A stretch of DNA of 64,000 bases from Limisphaerales bacterium (GCA_044230345.1 JBGARF010000002.1:193291-257290), one strand, 5' to 3'. Numbered from the stretch's first letter, positions 44,954 to 61,977 are shown. The notes: generated by a model from the letters alone, not told the origin. Numbers and translations: made by a program.

Positions 44954-46348
44954 TCACGGCGCCACGGAAGGACGCGCAGCGGGAGCAATCTCGCGCACGG
45001 GGGCCAGCACCGGCAGTTCTAGCGTGAACGTCGCGCCCGCGCCGGAACCTCCGCTGTGAGCCTGCAGGCTGCCGCCCATCTCGAGCGCGTCATTGGCCGC
45101 ACCGTGCAGCCCAAAGCCGTGCCCGTCGGGTTTCGTGGTGAACCCGAACTGAAAGATCCGCGGTCGATCTTCCGGGGCGATGCCCGTTCCGTTGTCCGTC
45201 ACGCTCACCTGAACGAACCCGGGCCGGCTTGAGGTCAGGCGCAATCCCAGGCGCTTGTCAGCCCGCACGACCGCTTGCACCGCGTCCGCCGCGTTGTTGA
45301 TCAGATTGATCAGAATGTGCAGGACCTTGTGCTTGTCGACGGCCACCGGGGGAACATCCTCAAAGTGGCGCTCAATCTCCACTCCGGCTGCGGCCAGGGG
45401 CTCGAGTTGGGCGCGCAGCGCCTCGTCGAGCAGCGAGCGCAACTCCACCTTTTCGATCACCGGCTTGACCCTCGCATGATCCTGCTGGCGCGCGACAACC
45501 TGTTTGATCTGGTGGATTCCCTTGACCACACACTTGACCTCGCCGGCGATGGCAGCGTGCTCGTCGGCCAGCGCGCGGGCGAGTTCGGGCAAATATTTCG
45601 CCACCAGCCGACCGCGCGCGTCATTCGCGATGAAACGGGCCAGCTCGTCGGTATCCCTCGGCAGCAGTGCCACCAACTGTTGCAGGTTCCCCATGTGGGA
45701 TTGGGCGAGATGATCTTCGATTAGCGACGTTGAAATATTTACGCTGGTCAGGGCGTTTCCCACATTGTGCAGCACGGAGGTGGCGATCTGCGCCATGCCG
45801 GCGAGCCGCGAACACTGCATCAGTTTGTCGCGAGTCCGGACCAGGGCCTGCTCCGCCTGCGTTCGGGCGATGAGCGAATACGCGAGCTGACGGAGCTCAA
45901 GGTTGTCGATGGGTTTCTGCAGGATGAGCAGGCGATCGCTTCGTCCGAGATGCGGCACGATGCCGGCCCAATCGAGATTATTGAAAGCGAGGCAGAGCAC
46001 GATGGGCAAATCCGGTTGCATCTGCCAGAGGCGCTCGACCGCGGAGATTTCCTCCCAACAGGACGCCGCCAGCCCCACAAATGCGACCGCGATGCCCTGT
46101 TCCTGGGCCAGCGAGAGGCGCATGACTTCCAGGCCCTCCGCCCAGTTCGGGGCAAACTCCAAATCCAAAATGGGAAAACTGCCCGATCGCGGGCCGTCAG
46201 ACACCGCCTCCGCCCCGCCGGAGGCGGCGCCATCGTCGGGCGCGTGCCAGGACGATTCCTCCGGCCAGATGGGCTCCAGCAACCGACGAAACTCGGCATA
46301 GGTGGCGGGGTCGGAGTCGATGACCAGCAAGCGCGCGCGCGATCGCAT
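44954..46348 (-). CDS. histidine kinase with degenerate N-terminal receiver-like domain
   Basis: HisKA-like SRLAGMAQIATSVLHNVGNAL. HATPase motifs NLINNAADA, DNGTGI, GHGFGLH. The N-terminal domain is colinear with receiver 1 of the 48119 protein but carries G at the phospho-acceptor position (AVAFVGLAAS versus [10 protein letters not shown]). The ATG at 46348 (MRSRARLLVIDSD) is preferred over the GTG at 46417. Confidence 0.85.
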   Translation of the reverse strand: MRSRARLLVIDSDPATYAEFRRLLEPIWPEESSWHAPDDGAASGGAEAVSDGPRSGSFPILDLEFAPNWAEGLEVMRLSLAQEQGIAVAFVGLAASCWEEISAVERLWQMQPDLPIVLCLAFNNLDWAGIVPHLGRSDRLLILQKPIDNLELRQLAYSLIARTQAEQALVRTRDKLMQCSRLAGMAQIATSVLHNVGNALTSVNISTSLIEDHLAQSHMGNLQQLVALLPRDTDELARFIANDARGRLVAKYLPELARALADEHAAIAGEVKCVVKGIHQIKQVVARQQDHARVKPVIEKVELRSLLDEALRAQLEPLAAAGVEIERHFEDVPPVAVDKHKVLHILINLINNAADAVQAVVRADKRLGLRLTSSRPGFVQVSVTDNGTGIAPEDRPRIFQFGFTTKPDGHGFGLHGAANDALEMGGSLQAHSGGSGAGATFTLELPVLAPVREIAPAARPSVAP

Positions 46349-46447
46349 GGCGTGGGTTTGGTTAGGCGGGGACTTCCCGGGGCCGACAGCGAACAGCGAA
46401 ATCCGGCCAACGGACACGGCCGCCCGCTCGTGCCGCGCCGGAAATGC

Positions 46448-46852
46448 TCACGCCCCAGCCTCCCCGGCAGTTCTGCGCGCGGCAAAACGGGCGCGAATCT
46501 TTTCAACCCGATCGAGGCAGTACTCCACCGCGTCGGCATCGCCTGCCTCGGGATTCTCCGCCGCCAACTGACTCAGCCAACGGCCCTCGTCTGCGGCCAG
46601 GGCGGCTTCAACGTCACCGAGTGTTTCCACGCCGGACGCAATGGTCACAAAGGCGCTCCGAACCCCGGCCCACGATTCAGCTCCGGCTCCGGCTCCAGCT
46701 GCGCCGGCCGGGGTCGATGCAACCCGTTTCAGTGCGCCCAGGAGGTCGATCACCCGCTGTTCGAGGCGCGCCAGTTCAGCGCGACTCTCCTCCGCTCGTC
46801 GCCGGACGGGCGGAGGCTGCAGGCGCGGCAAGCGGACGGCGGAAAGGTTCAT
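46448..46852 (-). CDS. small Ala/Arg-rich hypothetical protein (134 aa), translationally coupled
   Basis: ATGA start/stop overlap with the upstream gene at 46849-46852. Helical heptad-like segments AELARLEQRVIDLLGALKRV and VEYCLDRVEKIRARFAARR. Sits in the gap between two recognisable genes of the same operon. No recognisable family. Confidence 0.55.
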   Translation of the reverse strand: MNLSAVRLPRLQPPPVRRRAEESRAELARLEQRVIDLLGALKRVASTPAGAAGAGAGAESWAGVRSAFVTIASGVETLGDVEAALAADEGRWLSQLAAENPEAGDADAVEYCLDRVEKIRARFAARRTAGEAGA

Positions 46853-48114
46853 GCGGCCTGGCTTCGCTGCAAATAGCTGACCGGCCAGTAGTCGCAGATC
46901 TCCAGACAGACGAAGCGGTGCGCCAAGTGCTGGGTGGCCTCGAGACTCAATGCCATGGCGCGGGCAATCTCCTCGATCGAAAGCGGATTTTGCATCAACT
47001 CCGCGAACCGGACTTCGTCATCGTTCAGACTGATCTGCTGAATTCGTTCGTAGCCGAGCCGGGTAAAACTCGGCACCCCGCTGGATCGACACCACGTCAC
47101 CCGTCCGAGATGCTCAAAACGGACCCGCCGCAGGCTCTCGAGCGACCAGCTGGTCATGGAGCCGCGAAAGCCGGCCCGGCCGGCCGCGTAAGCCGGCAGC
47201 GGCACTGAAGCGAAGGAGAAGTTCCCCCGGCGCGCCGACCAGATCGGAGCAAAGAGACGCCACCCTTGCTCGAGACAGAGACGCGCCGCTTCGTCATCGG
47301 GAATCATCCCCTCCTTCGCGAGGCTGAGGTAAACCGGACAGCCGTCACGGGCCTGCGCTGCCCGCGCTTTTTCCCAGGCGCCCGCCTGCGCCGGCGACGG
47401 AGCAAAGTCGGACCCTTCCAGGTAACGCGACGGCGCGCTGCAGGTCAGCAGCACCACCGCTCCGCTGCACACCGACATCTCCAGGCGGTCCCCGGCCAGA
47501 TCGACGCTCAACACGCCGGTCGCGCGCTCTTCTTCAATCGCCTGTAAGGCGCCAAAAATCGGAAAGTGCGCGATGTCCCCGCGAAAGCCAAAACCGGACG
47601 CCTCGCCGGCCACGCGGGCGGAGACCGGCGAAGGGGCGACTGAATTGCCCGGAGACTGGAGAGGGGCTGACGCGACGGTCTGCTCAGCCTTGGCCGCCGA
47701 CGACGTCGGAACCGTTCGCGTTTCGGGGCGGCTGGCGCGGGGATTGGCCAGGACAGCGGTGAGGGTCGAACAGAGCAGCTCGGCCTTGAACGGCTTGGCG
47801 AGGCCGCGCACAACATTCTCGTATTCCGACTGGGTGCGCGTAATCTCCGCCACATTGCTGCTCATCAGCACCACTGGCAGGCCCGCCGTCCGCGCATCCT
47901 TGAGCAACTCCTCGCAGACGGCGTCGCCGCGCAAATCCGGAAGAATGAAATCGAGCAGGATCAAATCCGGCGCCTCTTCCTGGGCGCTCGTCAGGCCTTC
48001 GCGTCCGTCCTTGGCCAGCACCACTTCTGCGTCGCTCATCTGAGCGCTCAACGTCGCCCGAATAAACTGGCGAAGGGTCAGGCTGTCATCGATGACCAGA
48101 ATTCGTTTTCCCAT
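46849..48114 (-). CDS. response regulator: receiver + PATAN/DUF4388-like domain + C-terminal extension
   Basis: Receiver KRILVIDDSLTLRQ..DLILLDFILPD..LAKPF. PATAN-like FRGDIAHFPIFGALQAIEEERATGVLSVDLAGDRLEMSV. Confidence 0.8.
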   Translation of the reverse strand: MGKRILVIDDSLTLRQFIRATLSAQMSDAEVVLAKDGREGLTSAQEEAPDLILLDFILPDLRGDAVCEELLKDARTAGLPVVLMSSNVAEITRTQSEYENVVRGLAKPFKAELLCSTLTAVLANPRASRPETRTVPTSSAAKAEQTVASAPLQSPGNSVAPSPVSARVAGEASGFGFRGDIAHFPIFGALQAIEEERATGVLSVDLAGDRLEMSVCSGAVVLLTCSAPSRYLEGSDFAPSPAQAGAWEKARAAQARDGCPVYLSLAKEGMIPDDEAARLCLEQGWRLFAPIWSARRGNFSFASVPLPAYAAGRAGFRGSMTSWSLESLRRVRFEHLGRVTWCRSSGVPSFTRLGYERIQQISLNDDEVRFAELMQNPLSIEEIARAMALSLEATQHLAHRFVCLEICDYWPVSYLQRSQAA

Positions 48115-48118
48115 TTTT

Positions 48119-49384
48119 TTATGCAGCTTCGGACGACGAGTTACGTTCGTCGACCTGGTGGACCACGTTCAGAAGCAAGCCCTGCCAGCCAACGTGAATG
48201 GTCCGGGTGACCGGCGCCGGATCAACCGCCTCCTCCACGCGTCCCCGCTTCCAGCTGATGATGTCGGCCACGGCCTGCTCGCCCGAACGATCTCCGGCCT
48301 CGGCATGAACAATGTCGCCACCTTCGAAATACAAGCGTCCGTGGGACCCGCTTTCGTTGAAAAAATCGAGCGCCACGGTGGCCGCGGCCAGGCACTTCAG
48401 CTGAATCACGTCGATGGCGGTCAGCTTGGTCAGCGTGGCGGCAAAATTCGCCACCCCGGACCCGTGGCTATCGTCGCTGGCCTGGCGCCGCAGGCGAATC
48501 AGCGTGACCAACTCGTCGATGTTGATCGGTTTCTCCAAAAACCGGAGGACGCCGAGTTCCTCGGCGGCTGCCCGGTAACGCCCGAGTTCCTGGGCGGTCA
48601 TCAAAACCACCTGCGCATCGGCCTGGGTCACCTGGACGTCGCACAGGAAATCGATGCCCGAACCGTCGGGCACCACGATATCGAGCAGGAAGAAATCGAT
48701 CTGATTGTTCGCCAGGAGGGTTTGCGCCTCCGCCACGTTGCGGGCCGTGAAAATTTTCACGTCGGGCAGCGCCGCCGTCAGTTTCCGTTCGATGAACGTC
48801 CGCGTCAGGAGTTCGTCCTCCAGAATCAAAACGGCAAACGGCTGGGCCGGGGCGGACTCGCTCTGCAAAGTGGACGCCCGCAGACCGGAACTCGCCTGCC
48901 ACTTGCGCGTCAGCAGGTGGGCGAGCTGCAGCACTTCCTCCCGCTCGAAGGGCTTTCGCAAGATGGCGAGATTGTCGACATCGCCCAGCGTTTGAATCAT
49001 CCGCTCCCAAGTGTAGTCCGCGTAGGCCGTGCAAATGACCACCTGCAGCTCGGGATAACGCTGCCAGATGCGGCGCACGGTTTCGATCCCGTCCCAGCCG
49101 GGCGGCATGCGGACATCCACGAAGGCCACGGCGTAAGGACGCCCCTCGGACAAGGCGGCGCGAACCATGGCCAGCCCCTCCTCGCCGCTGGCGGCCGCGT
49201 CGACCTGGAAGGACTTTGACGTTTCCGCCGGGTTTCGTTCCCCGAACAACAGTTCGTGGATCTGCCCGAGTGCCGGATTGGCGTCCAGGTCCGCGCCCAG
49301 GACCTTGCGAAAATCCTCGTGCACCGACAACGTGTCGTCGATTACGAGAATTCGATTGTTCCGCAGATTCCGTTTGCTCTTCAT
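48119..49384 (-). CDS. response regulator: two receivers + PATAN/DUF4388-like domain
   Basis: REC1 RILVIDDTLSV..AVAFVDVRMPPGWDGIET..ICTAYADYTWE..LRKPF. REC2 FAVLILEDELL..DFFLLDIVVPDGSG..LEKP. PATAN-like LTKLTAIDVIQLKCLAAATVALDF..GRLYFEGGDIVHAEAGDRSGEQAVADIISW. The ATG at 49384 (MKSKRNLRNNRILVIDD) is preferred over the GTG at 49447. Confidence 0.85.
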   Translation of the reverse strand: MKSKRNLRNNRILVIDDTLSVHEDFRKVLGADLDANPALGQIHELLFGERNPAETSKSFQVDAAASGEEGLAMVRAALSEGRPYAVAFVDVRMPPGWDGIETVRRIWQRYPELQVVICTAYADYTWERMIQTLGDVDNLAILRKPFEREEVLQLAHLLTRKWQASSGLRASTLQSESAPAQPFAVLILEDELLTRTFIERKLTAALPDVKIFTARNVAEAQTLLANNQIDFFLLDIVVPDGSGIDFLCDVQVTQADAQVVLMTAQELGRYRAAAEELGVLRFLEKPINIDELVTLIRLRRQASDDSHGSGVANFAATLTKLTAIDVIQLKCLAAATVALDFFNESGSHGRLYFEGGDIVHAEAGDRSGEQAVADIISWKRGRVEEAVDPAPVTRTIHVGWQGLLLNVVHQVDERNSSSEAA

Positions 49385-49568
49385 CAGGACCGCACGGTGC
49401 TCAGTACCTTTTCCTATCGGCGGGATTTCGCCGCTCCTTAGGCGCACCCCACCGGGTCCACCCGACAGTGGCGACGCTAAAAATTTGCTTTAGGGAATTG
49501 AATCCCAGCCGATCACAACACCCAAGCCGGGGGGACTCCGGCCCGCCGGGAGCACTTCCCTGCGCTGC

Positions 49569-50735
49569 ATGAAAGAAACGAGCGTCAATAGCCAATCCGC
49601 TCCCGAGTCGACCGGACGAAAGGTCATCCTTTTTCTGGACGACTCCCCGGAGTACCTCGAGATCCTTCAGCGGGTCATGGGCGTCTGGAGCCGCGACGAG
49701 TGGGAGATCCTCGTGGCGGGCGACACGGCGGAGGCATTGAAGACGCTCGACCAACGCACGGTGGACGCGGTGGTCATCGATCTGCACATGCCCGTGGTTG
49801 ACGGAGCGCAATTCCTGCAGATGCTCCAGAACAGCCATCCCGGCGTCCGCAAGGTCATCCTCACCGGCTGCGCCGAGGACGCGATGCGGAACCAATGTCT
49901 CAGTCAAGGCGCGGAACTTTTCCTGGAGAAGCCCCGCACCACAACCGGCCTGGAGATTGTCTACCAGACGCTGCGCCAACTCCTGGCGATGCAACCCCAG
50001 GAAGGATTTCGCGGGCTGCTTCGGCGCGTCAGCCTTTCCGACATCGTCCAGCTCGAGTGCCTCAACCGCAGCTCATCGGTCCTGGAGATCGCCGACGGCC
50101 GGCGGCGCGGCCGGATTTTCATTCAACGCGGGGACATCATCCATGCGGAGATGGACGCGCTGACGGGAGTCGACGCGTTTCGGGCCTTGATGCAGCTCAA
50201 AGGCGGCGATTTCAATCTCAAGCCTTTTCTCGCCCCGCCTCGCCAAACCATCGCCGGTTCCTGGGAGTCCCTCCTGCTGGAGGTGGCCCAGTCGGTGGAC
50301 GAACTCTGCGCTTCATCCTTCACCGCCACGGGATCCAGCAGCGGTTCCTGCCAGTCCGCCACCTGGCTGCGTCGCAAACAACTGGAGGATCTGACCGGGG
50401 CGCGCGGCAGCCGCCCCAGCCCGCGCCCGGCCTGGTCGCCGGCGCCGCCCGCGCGAGGGGCCAGCCGCCGCGGCAAGCCGCACGTAACCGAACTGCTTGC
50501 CTACGAAAACGACGGCGGCATCCTCCAATCCTCCGGCTGCAGCCAGGAAGCAGCCCGCCGCAAGTTTCTCGACGAACTATCCGTTGCCGCCCACGAGGTT
50601 TGCACCGGGCTTGAGCTGGTCGAACCGCTCAACCTCGAAGCCATCGGTGATTCGGTCCGCTGGGTCGTCCGCTGGGAGGGCGCCCGCACCACTTTCGCCT
50701 CAGCCCAATACGCCCCGCGACCCGTCGACCCCTGA
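49569..50735 (+). CDS. response regulator: receiver + PATAN/DUF4388-like domain + C-terminal extension
   Basis: Receiver KVILFLDDSPE..DAVVIDLHMPVVDG..LEKP. PATAN-like FRGLLRRVSLSDIVQLECLNRSSSVLEI..GRIFIQRGDIIHAEMDALTGVDAFRALMQLKGGDFNLKP. Confidence 0.85.
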   Translation: MKETSVNSQSAPESTGRKVILFLDDSPEYLEILQRVMGVWSRDEWEILVAGDTAEALKTLDQRTVDAVVIDLHMPVVDGAQFLQMLQNSHPGVRKVILTGCAEDAMRNQCLSQGAELFLEKPRTTTGLEIVYQTLRQLLAMQPQEGFRGLLRRVSLSDIVQLECLNRSSSVLEIADGRRRGRIFIQRGDIIHAEMDALTGVDAFRALMQLKGGDFNLKPFLAPPRQTIAGSWESLLLEVAQSVDELCASSFTATGSSSGSCQSATWLRRKQLEDLTGARGSRPSPRPAWSPAPPARGASRRGKPHVTELLAYENDGGILQSSGCSQEAARRKFLDELSVAAHEVCTGLELVEPLNLEAIGDSVRWVVRWEGARTTFASAQYAPRPVDP

Positions 50736-50743
50736 AGCTCACC

Positions 50744-52201
50744 ATGCAAAAGCCGATCGTCCTGGCCGCCGACGACAGTGTCACTGTCCGCAAGCTGATT
50801 GAGATCAGCCTGCCCCGGGCGGAATTTCAGCTGGACTTCGCGGTCGATGGCCAGGAATGCCTGCGCAAAGCGGCCGAGCAGCCGCCCGACCTGATCCTGC
50901 TCGACTACATCCTCCCCGACATGAAGGGGGTGGAGGTTTGCCAGTCGCTGCTGAATCTGCCCAAAACGCGCAACGTTCCCGTCCTCCTCATCAGCGGCAA
51001 CGGCGCGGCGATTCGGCAGACGTACGAAAGCCTCAGCAATGTCGCGGACTACCTAACCAAACCATTTGCTCCCAATGTCCTCGCCGCGGTCGTGACGCAT
51101 CAGCTTTCCAAGCGCAAGGCCGCCGCCACTTCGGCGGCAGCCGAGCCTGAGCTGAACGTGGCTGGGCCCGGCGCCATGCCCGAGAAGCCACTCGATCCCT
51201 CCGCCGAGCTCCGGGCCAAAATTCGCGCCAGCACGCGCGCCTGCCTGCGGCGCGCCTTCGTCTCGTTCCCTGCCCTGGAAGCCATGCGCGACGGCGAACC
51301 GCCGGAGGACTATTACTGGAATCATCTCGAATCGACGGGCGGATTGGGGGAACTCGAGGACGCCTTGCTGACTTTGGCCGATCTCCGGCCTCCAGCCATC
51401 CTCCTCCGCACACCGAGTGAACTGTGCCGGACCGACGATCTCCTGCGCCATCTCCAATCGACCCGGGCCAGCGGCAGTCTCGCCATTGAACTGCCCGACG
51501 AGAAGGTCCTGGTCCAATTCGAAAACGGCGAGATCGTGTTTATCACGTCAAACCACCCGAAGCGCTACTGTGCCGGCGCCCAGTTCAATTTCCGCGCGGT
51601 CGCCCCGAACGCGGTGGCCGCCGCGGTGACGGAGCAGCAACAAAAGTCGATTCCGTTCTTTCTTGGCTTGCTCCGGGCCGGAGCGCTGCCTCAGGGCTCC
51701 CCGCTGGCGGCCATCCTGCGGGCCCAGGGCGAGGCCACGCTGGCCCGGGCCATCTCGTCGCCCCAGGCCACCTACACGCTGGAAGACCGCCCGCTGGCCG
51801 GTGATCTCGCCGCGTTCCGCCTCCGGTTCCCGCTCGCCCGCTTGCTCCTCGCGGCGTACCGCACGATCGATGACTGGCTGATCATCGAATCAGCCATTCC
51901 AAACTTTGATCTGGCCTTCGCCCGCAACCCGGAAGCCGCCGCCCTCGCGCGCGACCTGAACCTGCTGCCCGCCGAGAGCCAGCTGCTAAGCCTCGTCGAC
52001 GGCGCGCGCTCCGTGCAGGAGTTGGTGACCCTCACCGCGCGTCCTCCCTATCAGGTCTGCCGACAGCTCTACCCGTTTGTACGGCTGAATTTTCTCGTGC
52101 CCGCCGCGACGCCCGCGCAACGCGAGGCCGGCGCCCAGGCCGCCTCCCGGAACGACGTCCCGGTCCTGGCGCAGACCGGAGCCGATCCTGCCGGCATTTG
52201 A
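50744..52201 (+). CDS. response regulator: receiver + PATAN/DUF4388-like domain + C-terminal extension
   Basis: Receiver KPIVLAADDSVTVRK..DLILLDYILPDMKG..LTKPF. PATAN-like DDLLRHLQSTRASGSLAIELPDEKVLVQFENGEIVFITSN. A C-terminal LSLVDGARSVQELVTL segment is also present. Confidence 0.8.
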   Translation: MQKPIVLAADDSVTVRKLIEISLPRAEFQLDFAVDGQECLRKAAEQPPDLILLDYILPDMKGVEVCQSLLNLPKTRNVPVLLISGNGAAIRQTYESLSNVADYLTKPFAPNVLAAVVTHQLSKRKAAATSAAAEPELNVAGPGAMPEKPLDPSAELRAKIRASTRACLRRAFVSFPALEAMRDGEPPEDYYWNHLESTGGLGELEDALLTLADLRPPAILLRTPSELCRTDDLLRHLQSTRASGSLAIELPDEKVLVQFENGEIVFITSNHPKRYCAGAQFNFRAVAPNAVAAAVTEQQQKSIPFFLGLLRAGALPQGSPLAAILRAQGEATLARAISSPQATYTLEDRPLAGDLAAFRLRFPLARLLLAAYRTIDDWLIIESAIPNFDLAFARNPEAAALARDLNLLPAESQLLSLVDGARSVQELVTLTARPPYQVCRQLYPFVRLNFLVPAATPAQREAGAQAASRNDVPVLAQTGADPAGI

Positions 52202-52237
52202 TTTCAATCGATTAACCAATCAACAACGACAACCAAC

Positions 52238-52603
52238 ATGAGCAAAATCCTAATCGTGGACGATCTCTCTACTGAGATTCAGGTGATGAAAACAACCGTG
52301 GGCGGACTGGGCCACCATGTGGTCGAGGCCCGCGATGGTGAAGAGGGCATTCGCCTCGCCAAACAGGAAAAGCCCGACCTGATCCTCCTCGACGTGGTCC
52401 TGCCCAAGGTCGACGGCTTTCAGGTCTGCCGGCGCCTGAAAAAGGATCCGGAGACCGCCAACATTCCCATCATCCTGGTCTCCACCAAAAACCAGGAAAG
52501 CGATCAGTTCTGGGGGATCAAACAGGGCGCCACCGCCTATCTCTCCAAACCGATCGATACCTCGGCCCTTTCCGACAACGTCAAGAAACTGCTGGCGGCC
52601 TGA
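52238..52603 (+). CDS. cheY: single-domain CheY-like response regulator (PilG position)
   Basis: 121 aa. MSKILIVDDLSTE..DLILLDVVLPKVDG..YLSKP. Confidence 0.92.
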   Translation: MSKILIVDDLSTEIQVMKTTVGGLGHHVVEARDGEEGIRLAKQEKPDLILLDVVLPKVDGFQVCRRLKKDPETANIPIILVSTKNQESDQFWGIKQGATAYLSKPIDTSALSDNVKKLLAA

Positions 52604-52662
52604 GCCGTCCGCACTGCCGCGCCGCCGTTGAACTCCGCACCAGTGATTGCAGGAAAAAACCT

Positions 52663-53031
52663 ATGAGCAAAATCCTAATCGTGGACGACCTGGCCACCGA
52701 AATTCAGGTGATGAAGGGTGTCATCGCCGGCCTCGGACATGAGGCCATGTCGGTCAATGACGGCGAGGCCGGATTTCAAGCGGCCAAGCAATACAAGCCG
52801 GACCTCATCCTCATGGATGTCGTCATGCCCAAGATGGACGGCTACCAAACCTGCCGAAAGCTGAAGAAGGATCCGGAGACGTCCGGCATTCCCGTCATCA
52901 TGGTCACCTCGAAGAACAACGACACTGATCGGTCATGGGGTCTCAAGCAAGGGGCCGTTGATTACATCGGAAAGCCGTTTTCGCCGGATGATCTCACCCG
53001 GGCCATCCGCACCCACGTGAAGGGCATCTGA
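52663..53031 (+). CDS. cheY: single-domain CheY-like response regulator (PilH position)
   Basis: 122 aa. MSKILIVDDLATE..DLILMDVVMPKMDG..YIGKPF. The first 26 nt are identical to the preceding cheY. Confidence 0.92.
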   Translation: MSKILIVDDLATEIQVMKGVIAGLGHEAMSVNDGEAGFQAAKQYKPDLILMDVVMPKMDGYQTCRKLKKDPETSGIPVIMVTSKNNDTDRSWGLKQGAVDYIGKPFSPDDLTRAIRTHVKGI

Positions 53032-53573
53032 TGAGCACCGCCTCCGTCCTCTCGCCGGCCGGCCCGCGGGAAACTTCCGGGAACCGGCGCAGCTATGGTT
53101 GTTTCGTCCGCCAGCAGCAGGCGTTCGGCCTCGATGTCGCCTTTCTCCGGGAGGTCGTCCACACCCGCAACGTGACGCCCGTGCCCGCCGCGCCGGCCAG
53201 CGTGGCGGGCGTGATCAGTCTGCGCGGGGAAATCCTGCCGGTGGTCCTCATTGATTCCCTGCTGGGCCTTCAGCCCGAACCATTCGCACCGCGCAAACCC
53301 ATCCTCGTGCTGCGCCGTGACGATTTTCTCGTCGGAGTTCAGGTGGATGTGGTGGAGCGGGTCGAGACTTTCCCCCGCGAGGAAATCCTGCCCAGCCCCC
53401 TCGCGGCGAAGTATCCCTATTTCACGGCGATCCATCATTCCCGACAACGATCGCGCCTGACCAATCTGTTGGATGCCGCCGCCCTGATCGATCAACTCGC
53501 CGGTCAAGTGGCCGGCGGCGCTGGCGCCAAGTCCAAATCGGCCACCCCTGATGCCCCTGACCTTGAAAATTAG
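53031..53573 (+). CDS. cheW: CheW-like coupling protein (PilI position)
   Basis: 180 aa. CheW-like FGLDVAFLREVV...PASVAGVISLRGEILPVVLIDSLLG. Its start overlaps the upstream stop (TGATG). Confidence 0.85.
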   Translation: MSTASVLSPAGPRETSGNRRSYGCFVRQQQAFGLDVAFLREVVHTRNVTPVPAAPASVAGVISLRGEILPVVLIDSLLGLQPEPFAPRKPILVLRRDDFLVGVQVDVVERVETFPREEILPSPLAAKYPYFTAIHHSRQRSRLTNLLDAAALIDQLAGQVAGGAGAKSKSATPDAPDLEN

Positions 53574-53657
53574 CGCCGCCCGCGCCGGCCAACCGCCGGA
53601 CCGCGGCCTTCCCGCAAAATTCATTCTAACCTTTATCAACCATCATCGTAACGAACC

Positions 53658-56270
53658 ATGAGCAAGAATCCCCAACCCCCGTCCCCGTCGGCCGGCCAGG
53701 CATCCCTGTCCGGGTTCAGCCGCCTCAACATTCGCGCCAAGCTCCTGCTGTCCATCGTGACGCTGGGCCTCGTCGCCATCGTCGCCACCGCAGGCGTCAG
53801 CTATTACCTCAGCCGCGAGGCGTTGCAGCAGGAGGCGTTCGCCAAACTGACCGCCGTCGGCAAAGCCAAAGCCGACAGCATCGAGTCTTACTACCAGAAC
53901 ATTCGATATGAACTGTCCTCCACGGCGGACAGCTTGACCGTGCGCAACGCCCTGCGCGAATTGTCGAGTGCCCGGCGCGTCCTCCTCGATGAACTGGCCA
54001 AGGCCGGTGCCCCCGTCGACGCCGCCACGGAAGCGACCATCCGCCGGGACGTCAGCACCTACTACCAGAACGTGCTCCTGGCGAACCTCGCCAAAGTCCG
54101 CTCGTCCGGCATCGGCGACGTCAAGGACTACGTGCAACCGGACCTCGAAGCCAACGTGCTGCAGTTCGTCTACACCGTGAAAAATCCCGCCGTGGTCGGC
54201 AGCAAGTCGGACAACAACGAGCTGGAATCCATCCGGACCAATCCGGCCCTCGACGCCCGCTTCCGCGAAGCGTTCGTCAAAACTTCCTTCGCCCGCGCTC
54301 ACGCAGCCTATCACCCCTGGCTGACCGAAGTCCGCACCCGCTACGGCTATTACGACATCTTCGTTTGCGATGCGGACGGCAACGTGGTCTACACCAACTT
54401 CAAGGAACTGGACTTCAACGGCAACCTGCGCACCGGCCCGGAGAAAGGGACTGGTCTTGGCGAAGCCTACGCCGCCGCCTGGGCAGCCGATCGCGACAAG
54501 ACCTTGGACGGCCACGTCCGCCTGACGGATTTCAAACCGTATCCGAAATCGTATGACGCCCCGGCGGCATTCATCTCCGCACCGATCTTCGGCGCCGACG
54601 GACGCAAGGAGGGCGTGTTTATTTATCAGATGCCCGTCGACCGCATCAACGCCGTGATGACCTCGCACGGCAAGCAGGAGGAGTTCGGCCTGGGCAAATC
54701 TGGGGAATCCTATCTGGTCGGCCCCGACTTCATCCAGCGCACCGACTCGCGTTTCATGGCGGGTTTGTCGGCCGAACAAAAACGGAAGACCGTTGCGTCC
54801 GACGGCCAGGCACTCTCGGAAACCACGATTGGCGTCCTGCCCGTCAAGACGACTGGAGCGGAGAAAGCCCTGTCGAAGGGCAGCGAAGCCGTCGGCGCGG
54901 CCGTGTATCCGGATTATCGTGGCACGCCGGTGGTGGGCTACTATGCGCCGCTCAACGTGAAGGGCCTCAACTACGCGATCCTTTCCGAAATCGACGCCTC
55001 TGAAGCGTTCGCCCCCGCCCAAAAACAAGCGATCGCGTCCAGCGTCGTGGCCTTCTTCGCCCTCCTCCTGTTCATCGGATCCGGCATCTGGCTGGCCAAC
55101 GGCTTCACCCAGCCCATCGTCGCCCTCGCCCGAACGTCGGAACGACTGGCCGCCGGCGATCTCACGGCCCGCGCCAATCTGGCGAGGCAGGACGAACTCG
55201 GCACTCTCGCAACCGGCTTCAATCGAATGGTTGAATCACTCGCCGCCACCCAGACCCGACTCTCGGAAGAAAACAAGGCGCTGCAGGCCAACATTCGTGA
55301 CCTGCTTGGCGTGGTGTCGGATGCCTCCGACGGCAATCTTTCCGTCCGGGCCAAGGTGACGGAAGGCGCGCTCGGTAACGTGGCCGACGCCTTGAACCTG
55401 ATGTTCGACAACATCGGTGAACTGCTCGGCAAGGTCCGCCAGGTCGCCAGCCAGGTGGGTTCCGCCGCCAGCCAAATCCAGGGCTCCGCCGACACGCTCG
55501 CCCAAGGTGCCGAACGCCAGTCCAACGAAATCGTCAATACGACGTCGGCCGTCCAGGAAATGTCCGCCAACATCGAGGCCGTCTCCAACAACGCCACCAC
55601 CGCCGCCGAGGCCGCCCGCCGCGCCAAGGAAGCCTCCGAGGACGGCAACCGGTCCGTCAGCGAGGTCATCAACGGCATGGAAAAACTCCGTGAAGACGTG
55701 CAGGCGCTGGCGAAGAAGATCAAGCGCCTGGGCGAACGTTCGATGGAAATCTCCACCATCACGAACACCATCGCGGAAATCTCCAACCAGACCAACATTC
55801 TGGCCCTGAACGCCGCCATCGAAGCGGCGCGCGCCGGCGAACAAGGCCGCGGCTTCGCCGTCGTCGCCGAGGAAGTCCGCAAGCTGGCCGAACGAACCGC
55901 CGGTTCGACCCGCGAAATCGAGAAGCTCATCGGCAGCATCCAGGCCGAGACGAACGAGGCGGTTGCCTCGATGGAAGCGCAGACTCACGCGGTGGAACAG
56001 GAAAGCCGCATCGTGTCGGCCGCCGGCGAGGCGCTGGGCCGCATTCGCGAGGTGTCCCTGCAGTCCGCCGAGTTGATCAATGAAATCAATCTCTCGGGCA
56101 AACAGCAGGTCCGCGGCGCCGCCGGTGTCGCGCAAGCGATGGAAATCGTGGCGCAGGTCGCCGATCAAGCCCGCAACGGCGCCCAACAAACCAAGCAATC
56201 CACGCAGGGCCTGACCGAGCTCGCCGAGGAACTCAACCGGTCGGTCGCCCAGTTCAAGCTGGCCGCCTGA
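53658..56270 (+). CDS. methyl-accepting chemotaxis protein with periplasmic Cache-like sensor and HAMP (PilJ position)
   Basis: TM helix [23 protein letters not shown]. Cache-like [18 protein letters not shown] and [19 protein letters not shown]. Second TM helix, then HAMP. Signalling hairpin [40 protein letters not shown]. Confidence 0.92.
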
Positions 56271-56301
56271 TTCAACCGTCCACTCCGGCCCGTCATCGCG
56301 T

Positions 56302-57222
56302 ATGCCCAGTCCCGAGATTCAACCGGTGTCCACCCAGGACCTCGAGGCGGTCCGGCAGTTCCTCTGCCGCCGCTTCGGGTTCTGGGTGAAGGACGACTGG
56401 TTGGGGCGGCTGCGCGACAAGATCCGCGCGCGCATGGAGGCGACTGGCAGCAGCACCCCGTTGGATTACCGCCAGCGGCTCGAAGCCACGGCCGGCACCG
56501 CGCCCGCCGTGGCCCCCGAAGCGCGGGAACTGATCGAGGAACTGCTGATTCACGAAAGCCAGTTTCGACGCAACCCGGAGCAACTCGCCACCTTCGAGCA
56601 CGAGATCCTGCCGGAGTGGCAGGCCGGACCCGCCGGCCAGACCCGGCGCGTGGCCAGCCTCGGCTGCTCGACGGGCGAGGAAGCCTACACGCTGGGCATG
56701 AGCATCGAGGACTGCCTGGGCCAGGAGCGCGCCGAGGCCGTGCAAATCGTGGGACTCGACCTCAGTCGTCGTGCCATCGAAGCCGCCCGGCGCGGCCTTT
56801 ATCCAGCCTTTCGGCTGCGCGACCTGCCGACCGCCGTTCGAACGCGACATTTTACCGAGTCGCCCGAAGGCTGGCAGGTCGACGCGCGACTGCGCCGACG
56901 GGTGCGTTTCCTGCAGCACAACCTGCTCGACCCGCTTCCCATCAATTGCCTGGACGCCATCTTCTGCTGCAACGTCCTCATTTATTTTCCACCCGCCTCC
57001 GTGCGGGACGCCCTCGAACACGCGTATCGCGCGCTCAAACCCAACGGTCACCTTTTCCTCGGTCCGACCGACTCAGCCCTCGCCCTGCGCGATCGGTTCG
57101 AACCTTTGTCCAGTCCCGACACCACGTATTACCGGCGCCTTCCCTCACGCCTCGAGGCGGGCGACGCCGCGGTTACCCCACTCCTTCCCTCCCATCATGA
57201 GCCTGTTTCGCAACAACCCTGA
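56302..57222 (+). CDS. cheR: chemotaxis protein methyltransferase CheR (PilK position)
   Basis: ASLGCSTGEEAYTLGM, VGLDLSRRAIEAARRGLYP and DAIFCCNVLIYF are SAM-methyltransferase/CheR motifs. Confidence 0.9.
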   Translation: MPSPEIQPVSTQDLEAVRQFLCRRFGFWVKDDWLGRLRDKIRARMEATGSSTPLDYRQRLEATAGTAPAVAPEARELIEELLIHESQFRRNPEQLATFEHEILPEWQAGPAGQTRRVASLGCSTGEEAYTLGMSIEDCLGQERAEAVQIVGLDLSRRAIEAARRGLYPAFRLRDLPTAVRTRHFTESPEGWQVDARLRRRVRFLQHNLLDPLPINCLDAIFCCNVLIYFPPASVRDALEHAYRALKPNGHLFLGPTDSALALRDRFEPLSSPDTTYYRRLPSRLEAGDAAVTPLLPSHHEPVSQQP

Positions 57223-60200
57223 ACTACGCAGCTGTTTCGAGTCTGATGCCACCAATCTGCTCCAGCGCCTGCAGGAATGCCTCGAGCTCCTGACGCGCGA
57301 GGAGATCCAAGTCGACCAGTTCGAGGTGGCCCAGGAACTTGCCCACACGCTGCGCGGGGCCGCCGCCCTGATCGGAGCCCACTCCATCGCCCGCGTCACC
57401 GGTGATTTCATGCGCCTCTTTGAAATCGCTGACACCTTCAAATTCTCAGCCCTCGACCGCGCCCAAGCCATCTTTCAGTTCGCCCGGCAAAGCCTCGACC
57501 CCCTGCTCTCCGCGGTGGTCGACTGCCTGGCCGACAACCTCGATGCGATGGACCGGACCTGCGACGGCATCCACGAGGCAATCCTCGCGGAATGGGGCGA
57601 CTATTTCTATCAGCAGAACGCCGAGCCCGCAGCCGACACGATCACTCACGCTCAGCCAACTCCGACTCCACCGGCGTCCCCGGAGGATTCAACGGCCAGC
57701 CTGGTCAACGATTTCCTCAACGCCTTTCCGGAAAATGCCGAGCCGACTCCACCAGCCCCAGCCGGTGTTCCCACGTTAACTGTCCTGCCCGACCCCGAAC
57801 CGGCCGACGCCAACCTTCAGCCGGGCGTTGTCGTGGATGATTTCCTCACCGCCGTCGGTGACGGAATCACGCACCAGTCCACTCCGGGCACCACCAGCCC
57901 GGACCCGGTGGGTTTCCTGCCCAGCGACGCCGCGGGCGCCCCTTCCCTCGACACCACGGCGAGCCCCGGGGTCGAGCCCGCCACCGCCGAGGCGAACCCG
58001 CCCGAAGCCGCTTCCACCCGCGGGCTGGCCGAGGATTTTCTGGGCGCTGTCAGCAGCGCGCGCACCGACGAAGGCAACTCGATCGACGACTTTATCGCGA
58101 GCGTTGAACCCGCACCTGCTCCGGTGGCGACTCCCGAAAAGCCCGCGCCCCCGCGCGCGCCGGGCCCTGCCGCGGCCCCGACGGCGGAACCCGCCTTGGA
58201 GGTCGAAGCCGACCTGCTCCCGTTCTTCTACGAAGACGCGTTGACGAACCTCGAATCGATGGAGACGGCACTTCATCGGTGGGAGGACGACGCCTCCGAC
58301 AACGCGTCGTTGCAAGCCATCTACCGGCACACGCACACCATCAAGGGAGCCGCGAACAGCACCGGCCTGCTCGCCATCGGGCGCCTGGCCCACACGGTCG
58401 AGGACGCGCTCGAGGAACGGATCGAAGGCCGGCTCGTCGTCGACCACCACGCGTTGGTTAATTTGATTTACGGGCTGGCTGACGCCATCAAGGCGGGCAT
58501 CCGCGAGCTGCAAAAATCCGGTCGGCTGGCCGAATCGCAGGGCATCTTCGACCGCGTTTGCACTCAGGTGCAAACGCTGCGGGCGACCGCCACCCCCTCC
58601 GCCGAAACGACTGAGCCGTCCGCCGCCGAGACCGGAGAATCCGCCTCGGCCGCGAAGCCAGGCCGGTCACGAAAAAAATCGAAAGCCGCCCCGGCCGCAC
58701 ACCCAGTGCCCGAGCCCGAACGGATCTCGGAGCCATCCTCTGCTCCGGCCGTTGCAGCCGAGCCGGCCGCAGCCCAGTCGGCAGCACCTGCGGATGTCAC
58801 CTCCGGAGAACGGCAACCCCCGGCCCGCGCGGACCGAAACGCCTTGCGCGTGGAAAAGGAGGGAGCTGAAACCCTGGAACAACAGTCGATCCGCATCACC
58901 TCCCAACGGCTCGACGCGCTGATGAATCTGATCGGGGAGCTGGTGGTCAACCGCACGCGCCTCGACAAGAAAATCGTCGACATTGCCCGCCTCAAGGAGG
59001 AGCTCAATTTCTGCAAAGCCCGTCTCCTCGATTCCATCGGCGGCTTTCAGGAACGCTTCGAGTATTCACGCCGCCAGAAGCAGCGGCCGGGCGGACGAAA
59101 CCGCAATGACCTCGCCGCCTTGGGCCTCGGACCGGTGGCGCCGGGACCGGCCACGAACCCCTCCGCGCCCGGCGATTTCTCGGAGCTGGAATTTGATCGC
59201 TACGACGACTTCAACATCCTCGCCCGATCGCTGATTGAAATCGGCAATGACACCTCGGAGATCATCAGCCAGCTGGACCTGTTGTTCGGCTCGTTCAGCG
59301 AGGAATCCGGCCAGTTCAACAAGACCACCACCGAACTGCAAAATGAAGTGACCCGTGTGCGCATGGTGCCGCTCACGTTCCTCTTCCGGCGCCTGCAGCG
59401 CGCCGTTCGCGACGCCGCCCACCGGGAGCAAAAGCAGGTCGAGTTCGCCGTTTCCGGCAGCGAAACCCAGCTGGACAAGGTGATCGTCGATCAGATCTAT
59501 CCCCCGCTCCTTCACCTCGTCCGCAACGCCGTCTCGCACGGCCTCGAAACCAGCGAAGCACGGCAGAAGCACGGCAAGCCGTCCTCCGGACGCGTCTCGG
59601 TCAAGGCCTACCAGCAGGCCAATCAGGTCATCATTGAAGTGGCCGACGACGGACGCGGGCTGAACTTCGAAGCGATTCGCGCCACCGCCATCCGCCAGGG
59701 ATTGCTCAACGCCGAGGCCAATCCCCACGACGAAGAACTGACCAACCTCATCTTCCGGCCCGGCTTCTCCACCGCCCAGACCGTGAGCGAGGTCTCCGGG
59801 CGCGGCGTGGGCATGGACGTCGTCATGGCCGTGGTCTCCCGCCTCAACGGCACGGTCGCCGTCGAATCACGCCCCGGCGCCGGCTGCCTGTTCATTCTTC
59901 GCCTGCCGCTCACGCTCGCCATCAACCAGGCCATGATGATCTCGGTGGGCGAGGCGACCTACGCCATCCCGCTCAGTTTCGTCGAGCACATCGTCCCGTT
60001 CCAGGCCGGGTCCGTGCATGTTTCGGGCGACACCGAACTGTGGGTTTTCCGCGACCTCTCCATGCCGCTCGTCCGGCTCGAACGCTTGTTCGGGCTGCCG
60101 CCCGTCGAAGCTTCGCACGCCACGGTCGTGCAGGTCCGCGTCGCCAACAAAGTCCTCGCCCTGCTCGTCGGCACCCAACTCAGCAAACAGGACATCGTCG

Positions 60201-60763
60201 TCAAGTCGCTCGGCCGCCTGCTCAATGGGCACCGCTACTTCTCCGGCGCCACGCTCTCCGGCGATGGCAATGTCATTCTGATCCTCGACCTGCCCGGCAT
60301 CGAAGCCGCCGTCCGCGGCACCGCCGTGGCCGCCCTCCGCTCCGACACCCCAGCCTTCACCACCCGCACCACCTCCGCCGGCGAAAAACGCCGCGTGCTC
60401 GTGGTCGACGACTCCCTCAGCGTCCGCAAGGTCGCGGAGAAATATCTCCAGGCGCTCGGCTACGAATCCGTCCTGGCCGTCGACGGCCTCGACGCCCTGG
60501 AAAAGCTGCGCACGGAGACGGTCTCGCTTGTCATGACCGATCTGGAAATGCCGCGCATGCACGGGTTCGAACTCATCGCCGAGATCCGCCACCAGCCCGC
60601 CCTCAATCATCTGCCGATCATCGTGGTGACGTCGCGCGACGCGGAAAAACACCGGGCCCGGGCGCGGGAACTCGGCGCCAACGACTACATCACCAAGCCG
60701 TTTTCTCGCGATCAGCTCTCGCAACGCCTCGAACAAATCTTCGGCGCCGTGGTCGCCGCCTGA
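57197..60763 (+). CDS. cheA: hybrid chemotaxis histidine kinase CheA with two HPt-like domains, CheW-like domain and C-terminal receiver (ChpA position)
   Basis: The ATG at 57197 (MSLFRNNPEL) is in frame with ORF 56771..60763; the upstream extension overlaps cheR. HPt motifs AHTLRGAAALIG and THTIKGAANSTG are separated by a Pro/Ala-rich linker. Kinase core HLVRNAVSHGLE, DDGRGLN, GRGVGMDVV. CheW-like ATYAIPLSFVE. Receiver RVLVVDDSLSVRK..LVMTDLEMPRMHG..ITKPF. Confidence 0.92.
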   Translation: MSLFRNNPELRSCFESDATNLLQRLQECLELLTREEIQVDQFEVAQELAHTLRGAAALIGAHSIARVTGDFMRLFEIADTFKFSALDRAQAIFQFARQSLDPLLSAVVDCLADNLDAMDRTCDGIHEAILAEWGDYFYQQNAEPAADTITHAQPTPTPPASPEDSTASLVNDFLNAFPENAEPTPPAPAGVPTLTVLPDPEPADANLQPGVVVDDFLTAVGDGITHQSTPGTTSPDPVGFLPSDAAGAPSLDTTASPGVEPATAEANPPEAASTRGLAEDFLGAVSSARTDEGNSIDDFIASVEPAPAPVATPEKPAPPRAPGPAAAPTAEPALEVEADLLPFFYEDALTNLESMETALHRWEDDASDNASLQAIYRHTHTIKGAANSTGLLAIGRLAHTVEDALEERIEGRLVVDHHALVNLIYGLADAIKAGIRELQKSGRLAESQGIFDRVCTQVQTLRATATPSAETTEPSAAETGESASAAKPGRSRKKSKAAPAAHPVPEPERISEPSSAPAVAAEPAAAQSAAPADVTSGERQPPARADRNALRVEKEGAETLEQQSIRITSQRLDALMNLIGELVVNRTRLDKKIVDIARLKEELNFCKARLLDSIGGFQERFEYSRRQKQRPGGRNRNDLAALGLGPVAPGPATNPSAPGDFSELEFDRYDDFNILARSLIEIGNDTSEIISQLDLLFGSFSEESGQFNKTTTELQNEVTRVRMVPLTFLFRRLQRAVRDAAHREQKQVEFAVSGSETQLDKVIVDQIYPPLLHLVRNAVSHGLETSEARQKHGKPSSGRVSVKAYQQANQVIIEVADDGRGLNFEAIRATAIRQGLLNAEANPHDEELTNLIFRPGFSTAQTVSEVSGRGVGMDVVMAVVSRLNGTVAVESRPGAGCLFILRLPLTLAINQAMMISVGEATYAIPLSFVEHIVPFQAGSVHVSGDTELWVFRDLSMPLVRLERLFGLPPVEASHATVVQVRVANKVLALLVGTQLSKQDIVVKSLGRLLNGHRYFSGATLSGDGNVILILDLPGIEAAVRGTAVAALRSDTPAFTTRTTSAGEKRRVLVVDDSLSVRKVAEKYLQALGYESVLAVDGLDALEKLRTETVSLVMTDLEMPRMHGFELIAEIRHQPALNHLPIIVVTSRDAEKHRARARELGANDYITKPFSRDQLSQRLEQIFGAVVAA

Positions 60764-60768
60764 CCCGG

Positions 60769-61977
60769 ATGAACCGCGACGCACGCCCAGCAAACCCGCC
60801 GCCCGCCCGGCCCCACCCGGCCGCCCCCACGGCGCCCGGGGCCAAAGCGCCGACCCGCGTCCTGGTCGTGGACGACTCGCCCTTCATGCAGCGTCGGCTG
60901 ACCGAGATCCTCGAACACGCGCCCGACCTGCGCGTCGTCGGCCGGGCCCAACACGGCGGCGAAGCCGTCACTCTCGCCGAACGCCTCCAACCCGACGTCA
61001 TCACCATGGACCTGAACATGCCGCACATGGACGGCTTGCAGGCCATCGACGTCATCATGCGAACGTCGCCCCGCCCAATCGTGGTCATCAGCTCGCACAC
61101 GCGACGGTCGGCCCGCGCGGCCTTCGATGCTCTCGAGGCCGGTGCCGTTGAGATCGTGGCCAAGCCGTCGGATCGCAGCGTCTCGCTGGACCTCGATTCG
61201 GTCGCGGAGGAAATCGTGCGCAAGGTCCGTCAGGCCTCACGCATCCGCGTGGTCCGCTCGCGTTCAACCCCGGCGCCGTCCTCACCCCGACCGCCCGCGG
61301 CCGCCACCGCACCTGCCGCCCCGGCCGGACGATCGCCACTCGGCCCGCTCCGCTCCCGCGAGAATCTCGATCGCCCCGCGCTAATCGCCATCGGCAGCTC
61401 CACGGGCGGGCCCGTGGCATTGCGTCAGATTTTCCAGGCCATCCGTCACTCCAATCTTCCGCCGGTGCTGATCGTGCAGCATCTGCCTCCCGGGTTTACC
61501 CGAGACCTGGCCAGCCAACTGAACGCGCTCTCACCCATCGAGGTGGTGGAGGCCGCGCCCGGGCAAGTCCCGCAGCCGGGCGTGGCCTACGTGGCCCCCG
61601 GCGGCCAACACCTGGTATTCGGACCGGATGGCCATTTGGCCCTGAGCCAGGCACCACCCGTCCGGCACTGCCGCCCGTCGGTCGATGTCCTGTTCGAATC
61701 CGTGGCCGGCCACGTCGGCGCCCATGCACTGGGTGTGGTCCTGACTGGGATGGGGGACGACGGAACCAATGGCGCCACTGCGCTGCGGCGCGCGGGTGCC
61801 CGCGTCATCGCCCAGGACGAAGCCACGTCGCTGGTCTACGGCATGCCCAAAGCCGCCGCCGACGCGGGGGCCGTCGATGCGATACTTCCGCTGGATGCCA
61901 TCATCGTACAAATCGCCGCGCTCGCCGAACCGGCACCGGACGCGCCGCGGCTGTCACCACAGCTCTCCACGCCATGA
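60769..61977 (+). CDS. cheB: chemotaxis response regulator protein-glutamate methylesterase CheB (ChpB position)
   Basis: The ATG at 60769 is in frame with ORF 60040..61977. Pro-rich leader, then receiver RVLVVDDSPFMQRR..DVITMDLNMPHMDG. Esterase triad contexts GSSTGGP, VQHLPPGFT, GMGDDGT. Confidence 0.9.
   Translation: MNRDARPANPPPARPHPAAPTAPGAKAPTRVLVVDDSPFMQRRLTEILEHAPDLRVVGRAQHGGEAVTLAERLQPDVITMDLNMPHMDGLQAIDVIMRTSPRPIVVISSHTRRSARAAFDALEAGAVEIVAKPSDRSVSLDLDSVAEEIVRKVRQASRIRVVRSRSTPAPSSPRPPAAATAPAAPAGRSPLGPLRSRENLDRPALIAIGSSTGGPVALRQIFQAIRHSNLPPVLIVQHLPPGFTRDLASQLNALSPIEVVEAAPGQVPQPGVAYVAPGGQHLVFGPDGHLALSQAPPVRHCRPSVDVLFESVAGHVGAHALGVVLTGMGDDGTNGATALRRAGARVIAQDEATSLVYGMPKAAADAGAVDAILPLDAIIVQIAALAEPAPDAPRLSPQLSTP

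Follow-up and report, generated by a model that had tools for sequence, protein, structure and literature searches.

A stretch of 64,000 nucleotides from a Limisphaerales bacterium (GCA_044230345.1, JBGARF010000002.1:193291-257290), called the window hereafter, carries four response regulator genes placed head-to-head, two on each strand, next to a series of chemosensory (che) genes. These four genes, named A to D in the order of Table 1, had been singled out in an earlier reading of the DNA (the original prediction) as encoding proteins in which a receiver domain (REC) is followed by a PATAN domain, the family named DUF4388/PatA_N (PF14332) in Pfam. This section will show that this make-up is present in the four proteins, that gene D is the conserved first gene of a particular class of che operon, and that protein C ends in a module predicted to adopt the Roadblock fold. 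The four open reading frames (ORFs) lie at the expected coordinates, the peptide segments pointed out beforehand are present in their translations, and the divergent region that separates the two gene pairs has the announced length.

The four proteins were compared with the Pfam models Response_reg, DUF4388 and CheW, as the original prediction had suggested, using cut-offs of 30.2 bits for Response_reg and 25 bits for DUF4388. Each of them exceeds both: the Response_reg scores are 59 bits for A, 100.8 bits for B (over two stretches), 66 bits for C and 63.5 bits for D, and the DUF4388 scores are 29.5, 47.2, 59.8 and 37 bits in the same order, with E values ranging from 8e-7 to 3e-16. The DUF4388 matches cover residues 178-330 of A, 317-414 of B and 232-378 of D. 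This receiver-then-PATAN make-up of A-D is well beyond chance. The two receivers announced for one of the proteins are those of B. The receivers were described as canonical, and an alignment with E. coli CheY indeed places equivalents of D12, D13, D57, T-or-S87 and K109 in all five, the sole change of the active site being a glutamate for D12 in the second receiver of B. In each protein the receiver precedes PATAN, so that the order of PatA-type regulators, with PATAN at the N-terminus, is found in none of A-D.

A fifth PATAN segment belongs to a CheW-PATAN fusion encoded further downstream, and A-D and this fusion all lie above the gathering score of PF14332. Among all ORFs of the window, a profile scan detects exactly these five copies; the predicted number is correct, this fusion included, whereas the span is about 16 kb and not 19 kb. 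The alignment of the five segments shows an insertion of about 55 aa common to A and D and absent from B, C and CheW-PATAN. This insertion-type PATAN, the conserved C-terminal tail of the same two proteins, and the third, Roadblock-like domain of C had not been noticed previously. PATAN itself gives no significant match in the PDB, either by sequence profile or by fold using Foldseek, and a homologue search with CheW-PATAN returns three proteins only.

The genes are distributed in two divergent operons (Table 1). The plus-strand operon encodes C, D, CheY, CheY, CheW, MCP, CheR, CheA, CheB, CheW-PATAN, CheW and a 128-aa ORF, while the minus-strand operon encodes B, A, ORF134 and a histidine kinase, with ThiC beyond. 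The claim that all the PATAN genes are wrapped around one che operon has to be abandoned, since A and B reside in a separate operon with its own kinase; distant C-type genes are found beside HEAT-repeat genes. An upstream GTG at 49447 is a possible alternative start for B, and the length of the divergent spacer assumes the ATG at 49384. The CheA sequence has no match to a P2/CheY-binding model, and this 1188-aa gene is also annotated on a public contig. With the NCBIfam models, the matches of the regulators and che proteins are limited to generic response-regulator, CheA and MCP families, and CheW-PATAN, ORF134 and the 128-aa ORF have no match.

Table 1. Genes and features of the two divergent operons, from 44954 to 63975 of the window
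Feature	Position	Strand	Match or remark
Histidine kinase with N-terminal pseudo-receiver	44954..46417	-	HATPase_c 68 bits; NCBIfam kinase-core matches at residues ~290-475
ORF134, 134 aa, between A and the kinase	46448..46852	-	no Pfam or NCBIfam match
Protein A, 421 aa: REC, PATAN with ~55-aa insertion, ~90-aa C-terminal tail	46849..48114	-	
Protein B, 421 aa from ATG: REC, REC, short PATAN	48119..49384	-	
B-C divergent intergenic region, 184 bp	49385..49568	.	
Protein C, 388 aa: REC, short PATAN, disordered Pro-rich linker, predicted 78-aa minimal Roadblock-like domain	49569..50735	+	
Protein D, 485 aa: REC, ~100-aa linker, PATAN with insertion, conserved C-terminal tail	50744..52201	+	
Single-domain CheY-like regulator 1	52238..52603	+	Response_reg 90 bits
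Single-domain CheY-like regulator 2	52663..53031	+	Response_reg 96.8 bits
CheW adaptor (PilI slot)	53031..53573	+	CheW 86.4 bits
MCP chemoreceptor, HAMP and signalling domain	53658..56270	+	MCPsignal 149 bits; HAMP 54 bits
CheR methyltransferase	56302..57222	+	CheR 145.3 bits
Hybrid CheA, 1188 aa: two Hpt, H-kinase_dim, HATPase_c, CheW, C-terminal REC	57197..60763	+	Pfam
CheB methylesterase with receiver	60769..61977	+	CheB_methylest 203 bits; Response_reg 79.6 bits
CheW-PATAN fusion (ChpC slot), fifth PATAN copy	61974..63077	+	CheW 33.1 bits; DUF4388 30.8 bits
Third CheW	63074..63592	+	CheW 50.1 bits
128-aa ORF, last gene of the operon	63589..63975	+	homologous to the small ORF after C-type genes

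The most conserved association of the locus is the one between D and the che genes. The genomic contexts of D homologues were collected by look-ups of the exact protein and by a metagenome scan using the D-family alignment deprived of its receiver. This approach produced 16 distinct loci (L001, L086, L087/L091, L088, L090 and L092-L101) with about 35-72% identity to D; L001 is found in GCA_044229355.1. In all 16, as far as each of them extends, the genes that come after the D-type gene encode CheY (sometimes two), CheW, MCP, in most cases CheR, and then a CheA carrying Hpt domains and ending in a REC. A CheB gene is frequently next, and the operon closes with a CheW-PatA_N gene in L001 and L086 and, at the same place in L090, with a 202-aa PatA_N protein; no CheW-PATAN is present in L087 and L088 within the stretch read. 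A chance neighbourhood of the four genes and the che operon was considered and is rejected by this complete synteny of D. The D family is strongly conserved, tail included, and the D-type gene is the conserved first regulator and a reliable marker of this class of che operon. A distant D homologue, 27% identical and organised as REC-PATAN-REC-PATAN in our own profile scan, shows no linkage with che genes. The proposal that PATAN forms part of the pathway is thus supported by the position of D and by the PATAN proteins that close the operon in three of these loci, and in this lineage also by the position of C.

The cyanobacterial tax operons are described as comprising a PATAN-REC regulator, a plain CheY, CheW, MCP and CheA, and their gene order matches that of the D-led operon. 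The window operon is also colinear with the pilGHIJK-chpABC cluster of Pseudomonas aeruginosa (bioRxiv 10.1101/825596), and D can therefore be placed in the PilG/PixG slot. The multi-Hpt CheA with a C-terminal receiver and no P2 match, together with the order regulators, CheW, MCP, CheR, CheA, CheB, CheW, corresponds to what is expected of the type IV pilus (Tfp) and alternative cellular function (ACF) classes, to which about 93% of multi-Hpt CheAs belong (PMC10782961). The neighbourhoods of two other D-type loci contain genes of interest in this respect. In L086, a divergent set located on the minus strand beside the che operon (6931-9671) encodes a 159-aa Robl_LC7 protein, a 204-aa GTPase of the Arf/Ras family and a third protein, of 546 aa, that matches Roadblock weakly; the set resembles MglA/MglB. 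In L087, a plus-strand cluster (107-2887) located 7-9 kb upstream of the C-D-che operon starts with PilM (48.9 bits) and continues with three small ORFs having weak PilN and T2SS-M matches (PilN-/PilO-like). Separately, D-like receivers are fused to TPR repeats and T2SSE_N/GspE_N (PF05157) in the database proteins P0302, P0303, P0305, P0307 and P0313; this N-terminal domain is typical of pilus and secretion ATPases and provides a further link between REC and pilus ATPases.

Protein C was investigated by alignment and by structure prediction. The 29 aligned proteins of the C family share the receiver, PATAN, a variable Pro-rich linker and a conserved C-terminal module of about 90 residues. The AlphaFold2 models of C have a mean predicted local distance difference test (pLDDT) score of 83.5 and 80.9, and the C-terminal module shows a beta-beta-alpha-beta-beta-beta topology with pLDDT above 88. 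A Foldseek search with the full model was swamped by receiver structures, and C was re-modelled without its receiver for the fold search. All of the 50 best PDB matches then belong to the Roadblock/LC7/LAMTOR/MglB family; they include Ego2, LAMTOR4/5, dynein LC7, MglB and MglC of Myxococcus xanthus and an Asgard Roadblock protein, with target-normalised TM-scores mostly between 0.42 and 0.70. On these models, the C-terminal module of C is predicted to have a Roadblock fold. A comparable layout is encountered in the database protein P0172, composed of REC, DUF4388 and a Robl_LC7 domain recognised by Pfam (52.9 bits), and P0212 is annotated as Roadblock/MglB-like by one source. The profile of the C tail finds nothing significant among PDB sequences. 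The same C-terminal module also follows PATAN in proteins devoid of a receiver, and the only organism names attached to C homologues are Pedosphaera sp. and Verrucomicrobiota bacterium; judging by these names, the source of the window probably belongs to the Verrucomicrobiota. A contig scan using the full-length C alignment was discarded: it caught the generic phospho-site motif of receivers and gave 80 unrelated response-regulator loci, none with PATAN.

The adjacency of C and D upstream of the che genes is also observed in L087/L091. In the distant cases, the end of a HEAT-repeat gene overlaps the C-type gene, after which comes an ORF of 104-116 aa. This arrangement is seen in other Verrucomicrobiota-like genomes, in L083/L084 (8577-11493) and L085 (7902-11511), where a gene with HEAT/PBS-lyase-like repeats, whose stop overlaps the next start, precedes the REC-PATAN-Roadblock-like gene and the small ORF, without che genes. 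The 128-aa ORF of the window is homologous to this small ORF (L084, 11143-11493; L085, 11170-11511; phmmer E 6e-6), is conserved after CheW in L001/L104 and L103, and is found fused to a C-type protein in P0047 (residues ~400-460; blastp E 8e-10). With the homologue of the small ORF at its end, the che operon of the present lineage is therefore bracketed by the C module and this partner.

The minus-strand pair was compared with the plus-strand pair by an all-against-all BLASTP. The nearest paralogue of A is the D family, with 39-41% identity in REC and 26-30% in PATAN, and the nearest paralogue of B is the C family, with 27-30% identity over its second receiver and PATAN; B is devoid of the Roadblock-like tail of C. 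With A closest to D and B closest to C among the paralogues, the pair B-A is interpreted from these alignments as an old, deeply diverged inverted (mirror) duplicate of C-D. The whole head-to-head arrangement, kinase and small ORF included, recurs with 66-81% protein identity in L001 and in L002, a short contig. The B-A-kinase unit is seen only in the window and in this close relative (L001/L002) and is not seen in L086-L101. The N-terminal 170 aa of the kinase are homologous to the first receiver of B (32% identity, E 2e-20). The context of the phospho-acceptor is changed from FVDVRMP to FVGLAAS, and the N-terminal acidic pair from DD to DS by its second residue; because the phospho-acceptor Asp is lost, this region is considered a pseudo-receiver. 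From its sequence, it may pair with B instead of receiving phosphate. The counterpart of ORF134, of 123 aa, occupies the same position in L001 and L002. As a side observation, the N-terminus of ORF134 is strongly conserved (MNLSAVRLPRL.PPPVRRRAEES), and the gene is kept between A and the kinase in both.

Several short blocks of the divergent region 49385-49568 are conserved with L001 (9785-10000) and L002, namely CTATCGGCGGGATT, TCCTTAG, TGCTTTAG and GCCGATCA. These blocks may be regulator or promoter sites. No match to the sigma-70 consensus is present in 49385-49568, and a sigma-54-like motif of the same region was rejected on account of its wrong spacing and its absence from L001. The remainder of the window (224-42455) encodes very large surface/adhesin-like proteins of 2272 aa (PATR repeats and PA14), 1918 aa and 1717 aa (Laminin_G_3), as well as a BspA-type leucine-rich repeat protein, two Ser/Thr kinase-WD40 proteins, a GH44 glycosidase and a multi-haem cytochrome c-PA14 protein.

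The inverted order of the two domains had been put forward as an unusual property of these regulators. The frequency of this order was estimated with a profile made from the five PATAN segments and searched against 1.84 billion cluster representatives. This search produced 9,892 proteins at E <= 1e-3, of which 851 remain at E <= 1e-10. Receivers and PATAN were then mapped, using profiles of our own, on the best 149 of the 9,892 matches, nine of which were confirmed by Pfam. A receiver immediately precedes PATAN in about 75 of these 149, tandem (REC-PATAN)x2 and long-tailed proteins included, a fraction which is rough given that this sample is biased towards relatives of the query profile. The plain PATAN-REC order occurs in none of the best 149, the remainder being PATAN alone or PATAN repeats. 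Han et al. report more than 8000 DUF4388 proteins, most of them with no other domain or with a single REC. The REC-then-PATAN architecture, as predicted from these sequences, is clearly common; the C-terminal position of PATAN in A-D stands, and its supposed rarity does not. The proteins P0119, P0129, P0137, P0139, P0184 and others are organised as tandem REC-PATAN-REC-PATAN or contain three to four PATAN repeats. By their domain order, the tandem REC-PATAN polypeptides are considered fused counterparts of the gene pairs of the window. The literature search retrieved no experimental study of a REC-PATAN protein, no occurrence of the phrase 'REC-PATAN' and no description of a D-led che operon. 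The original prediction knew of no characterised system of this architecture, a statement with which this search agrees; its own counter-case, a family both common and already characterised, is encountered for the first term only.

Taken together, these data suggest with moderate confidence that the locus is a Pil-Chp/Tax-like system of the Tfp or ACF class, in which the receiver-PATAN outputs would adapt the signalling to a polar pilus or polarity machine. From the domain content, the intact phospho-acceptor sites and the gene order, we infer the following path. The receptor would control CheA, and the Hpt domains of CheA would pass phosphoryl groups to the receivers of D and C and to both CheYs. 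Phosphorylation would then alter the binding of the attached PATAN and, in C, would also affect the Roadblock-like domain. By analogy, the candidate targets are the motor of a type IV pilus and a polarity module built, like MglA/MglB, on a Ras-like GTPase, and the output would consist in positioning a surface-motility or adhesion machine or in setting its polarity, and not in transcription. The CheW-PATAN protein would connect the receptor array with this same partner, and B and A, with the pseudo-receiver kinase, would probably provide a second input into the same output layer. The analogy relies on the PATAN-REC regulators of Synechocystis, which are reported to bind the pilus motor components PilB1 and PilC, and on the MglA/MglB homologues that often neighbour PATAN genes (bioRxiv 10.1101/2021.06.11.447907); PATAN has been summarised as mediating a direct interaction with PilB (PMC10519157).

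Several observations weigh against this interpretation. The binding targets are borrowed wholly from cyanobacteria and Myxococcus, and A and B are transcribed together with a different kinase and might thus never receive phosphate from CheA. The 64-kb window contains neither a type IV pilus gene nor a gene for an MglA-like protein or small GTPase, and the same holds for the 10 kb downstream of the operon in L001. The placement in the Tfp or ACF class is read from the make-up of CheA and from gene order. As regards the Roadblock-like domain, the Foldseek E values are modest (2.6e-3 to 1.2e-2 over about 80 aligned columns), and the match, for which Foldseek gives no query coordinates, is assigned to the C-terminal module by its length and topology. 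No Robl_LC7 match is obtained with Pfam in C at E <= 1, and an hhalign comparison of the C tail with the Robl region of P0172 is in register with a probability of 2%, which is not significant. Finally, the C-type genes of about 34-43% identity are not linked to che genes.

These points leave room for other explanations of unequal weight. The most probable of them, less probable than the Pil-Chp/Tax-like reading but still a serious possibility, is that B, A, ORF134 and the kinase make up a two-component system of their own, which would neighbour the che operon through the old inverted duplication and would not be fed by CheA. The separate divergent operon with its own kinase is in agreement with this idea, as is the restriction of the B-A-kinase unit to the window and L001/L002, and the homology between the pseudo-receiver and the first receiver of B suggests a private pairing of kinase and regulator. 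Such an independence is less easily reconciled with the conservation of the head-to-head layout, whose divergent region is itself partly conserved, at the level of protein identity mentioned above, or with the paralogy of A and B to the che-linked D and C; these proteins share the same PATAN output domain and thus probably the same targets.

According to the main competing view of the mechanism, judged unlikely, PATAN would serve in docking or as a scaffold. Like-with-like contacts would bring the REC-PATAN regulators to CheW-PATAN in the array, where they would replace the missing P2 of CheA and set which regulators are served by the kinase; the real output would then be provided by the single-domain CheYs, the Roadblock-like domain or the C-terminal tails. 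The lack of a P2 match in CheA and the presence of PATAN on both an array protein and regulators of the same operon argue in this direction, along with the many database proteins carrying two to four tandem PATAN, which point to a domain often working in multiple copies, and with the extra C-terminal modules of A, C and D, which could be the true effectors. A contact between two PATAN domains is nevertheless hypothetical, B ends straight after PATAN without a further module, the operons of L087 and L088 are read without CheW-PATAN, and the Synechocystis regulators are reported to bind PilB1 and PilC, with PATAN itself described as contacting PilB directly. A last explanation, very improbable, holds that A and D are DNA-binding transcription regulators acting through a winged-helix-like tail or through the helical insertion of PATAN, the pathway then controlling gene expression. 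The tail is conserved across the D family, and that of one D homologue has a weak winged-helix match (PKMT_2nd, E 0.0075) which is below the cut-off, whereas no DNA-binding family is significant in A-D with Pfam or NCBIfam. An older DNA-binding prediction for PatA-type regulators is mentioned and disputed in bioRxiv 10.1101/2021.06.11.447907, in which this activity is argued to be unlikely and binding to the pilus motor is shown; chemosensory operons of this layout are moreover known to act on machines or second messengers.

These findings are of interest beyond this locus. To our knowledge, PATAN has been studied only in cyanobacteria and in the PATAN-REC order, and its binding partners are only recently emerging. 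Outside cyanobacteria, the corresponding slot of the operon is occupied by the REC-PATAN order, which is the commoner one, and one family of this type, that of D, reliably marks a conserved che operon. PATAN is moreover combined with a predicted Roadblock-like fold and, in a relative, lies beside MglA/MglB-like genes. These proteins represent testable candidates for the connection between chemosensory signalling and polar machines in the Verrucomicrobiota, a phylum that has received little study, and they offer a comparative handle on the general role of PATAN. A bolder proposal, rather unlikely as a whole, is that an unrecognised, conserved chemosensory class exists in Verrucomicrobiota-like bacteria, with PATAN as a general coupling domain: REC-PATAN and CheW-PATAN would bind one polar machine, and REC-PATAN-Roadblock with its partner would link the Che proteins to a Ras-like GTPase switch. 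If true, the PixG-PilB logic of cyanobacteria and the Frz-MglA/B logic of myxobacteria would be merged in a single operon.

The comparison with known systems can be made at several levels. The database REC-DUF4388 proteins, such as P0172 and the tandem (REC-PATAN)x2 proteins, have the same architecture and are often annotated as 'CheY-like chemotaxis protein'; these are annotation-level entries, for which the literature yielded no experimental study and no description of a conserved position in a che operon. In the chemosensory Frz pathway of M. xanthus, with its MglA/MglB polarity module, the response regulators that form the output target a Ras-like GTPase together with its partner of Roadblock fold. 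The likeness resides in the end of C, whose predicted Roadblock-like fold matches the MglB and MglC structures, and in the L086 operon, which adjoins the small GTPase and Robl_LC7 genes. In contrast, FrzX and FrzZ have neither PATAN nor Roadblock, the window is devoid of an MglA-like gene, and the domain of C, as modelled, would be a minimal beta-beta-alpha-beta-beta-beta version, for which a function as GTPase-activating protein would be hypothetical. The colinearity with the Pil-Chp system of P. aeruginosa extends over the regulators, CheW, MCP, CheR, a multi-Hpt CheA with a C-terminal REC, CheB and a second CheW, and both systems have more than one adaptor protein. They differ in that PilG, PilH and ChpC lack PATAN, ChpA has eight Hpt domains against two in the present CheA, and the surroundings of the window locus contain no pilus genes. 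A further parallel is provided by PixG, TaxP2 and the PilG of Synechocystis, which combine the same two domains (PF14332 and PF00072), share the insertion-type PATAN with A and D, and are likewise encoded by the first gene of a chemotaxis-like operon, before a plain CheY, CheW, MCP and CheA-REC. Here, however, the order is reversed, REC preceding PATAN, and additional modules occur, a Roadblock-like domain in C and a conserved tail in A and D; two such regulators are encoded in the operon, accompanied by a CheW-PATAN fusion and by two paralogues on the divergent side. The bacterium is of a non-cyanobacterial lineage, and no light-sensing receptor domain is detected. The D-led operon, the CheW-PATAN fusion and the REC-PATAN-Roadblock protein with its partner are uncharacterised specifics of a locus which is of a known kind, that of the PATAN regulators of pilus-type chemosensory systems.

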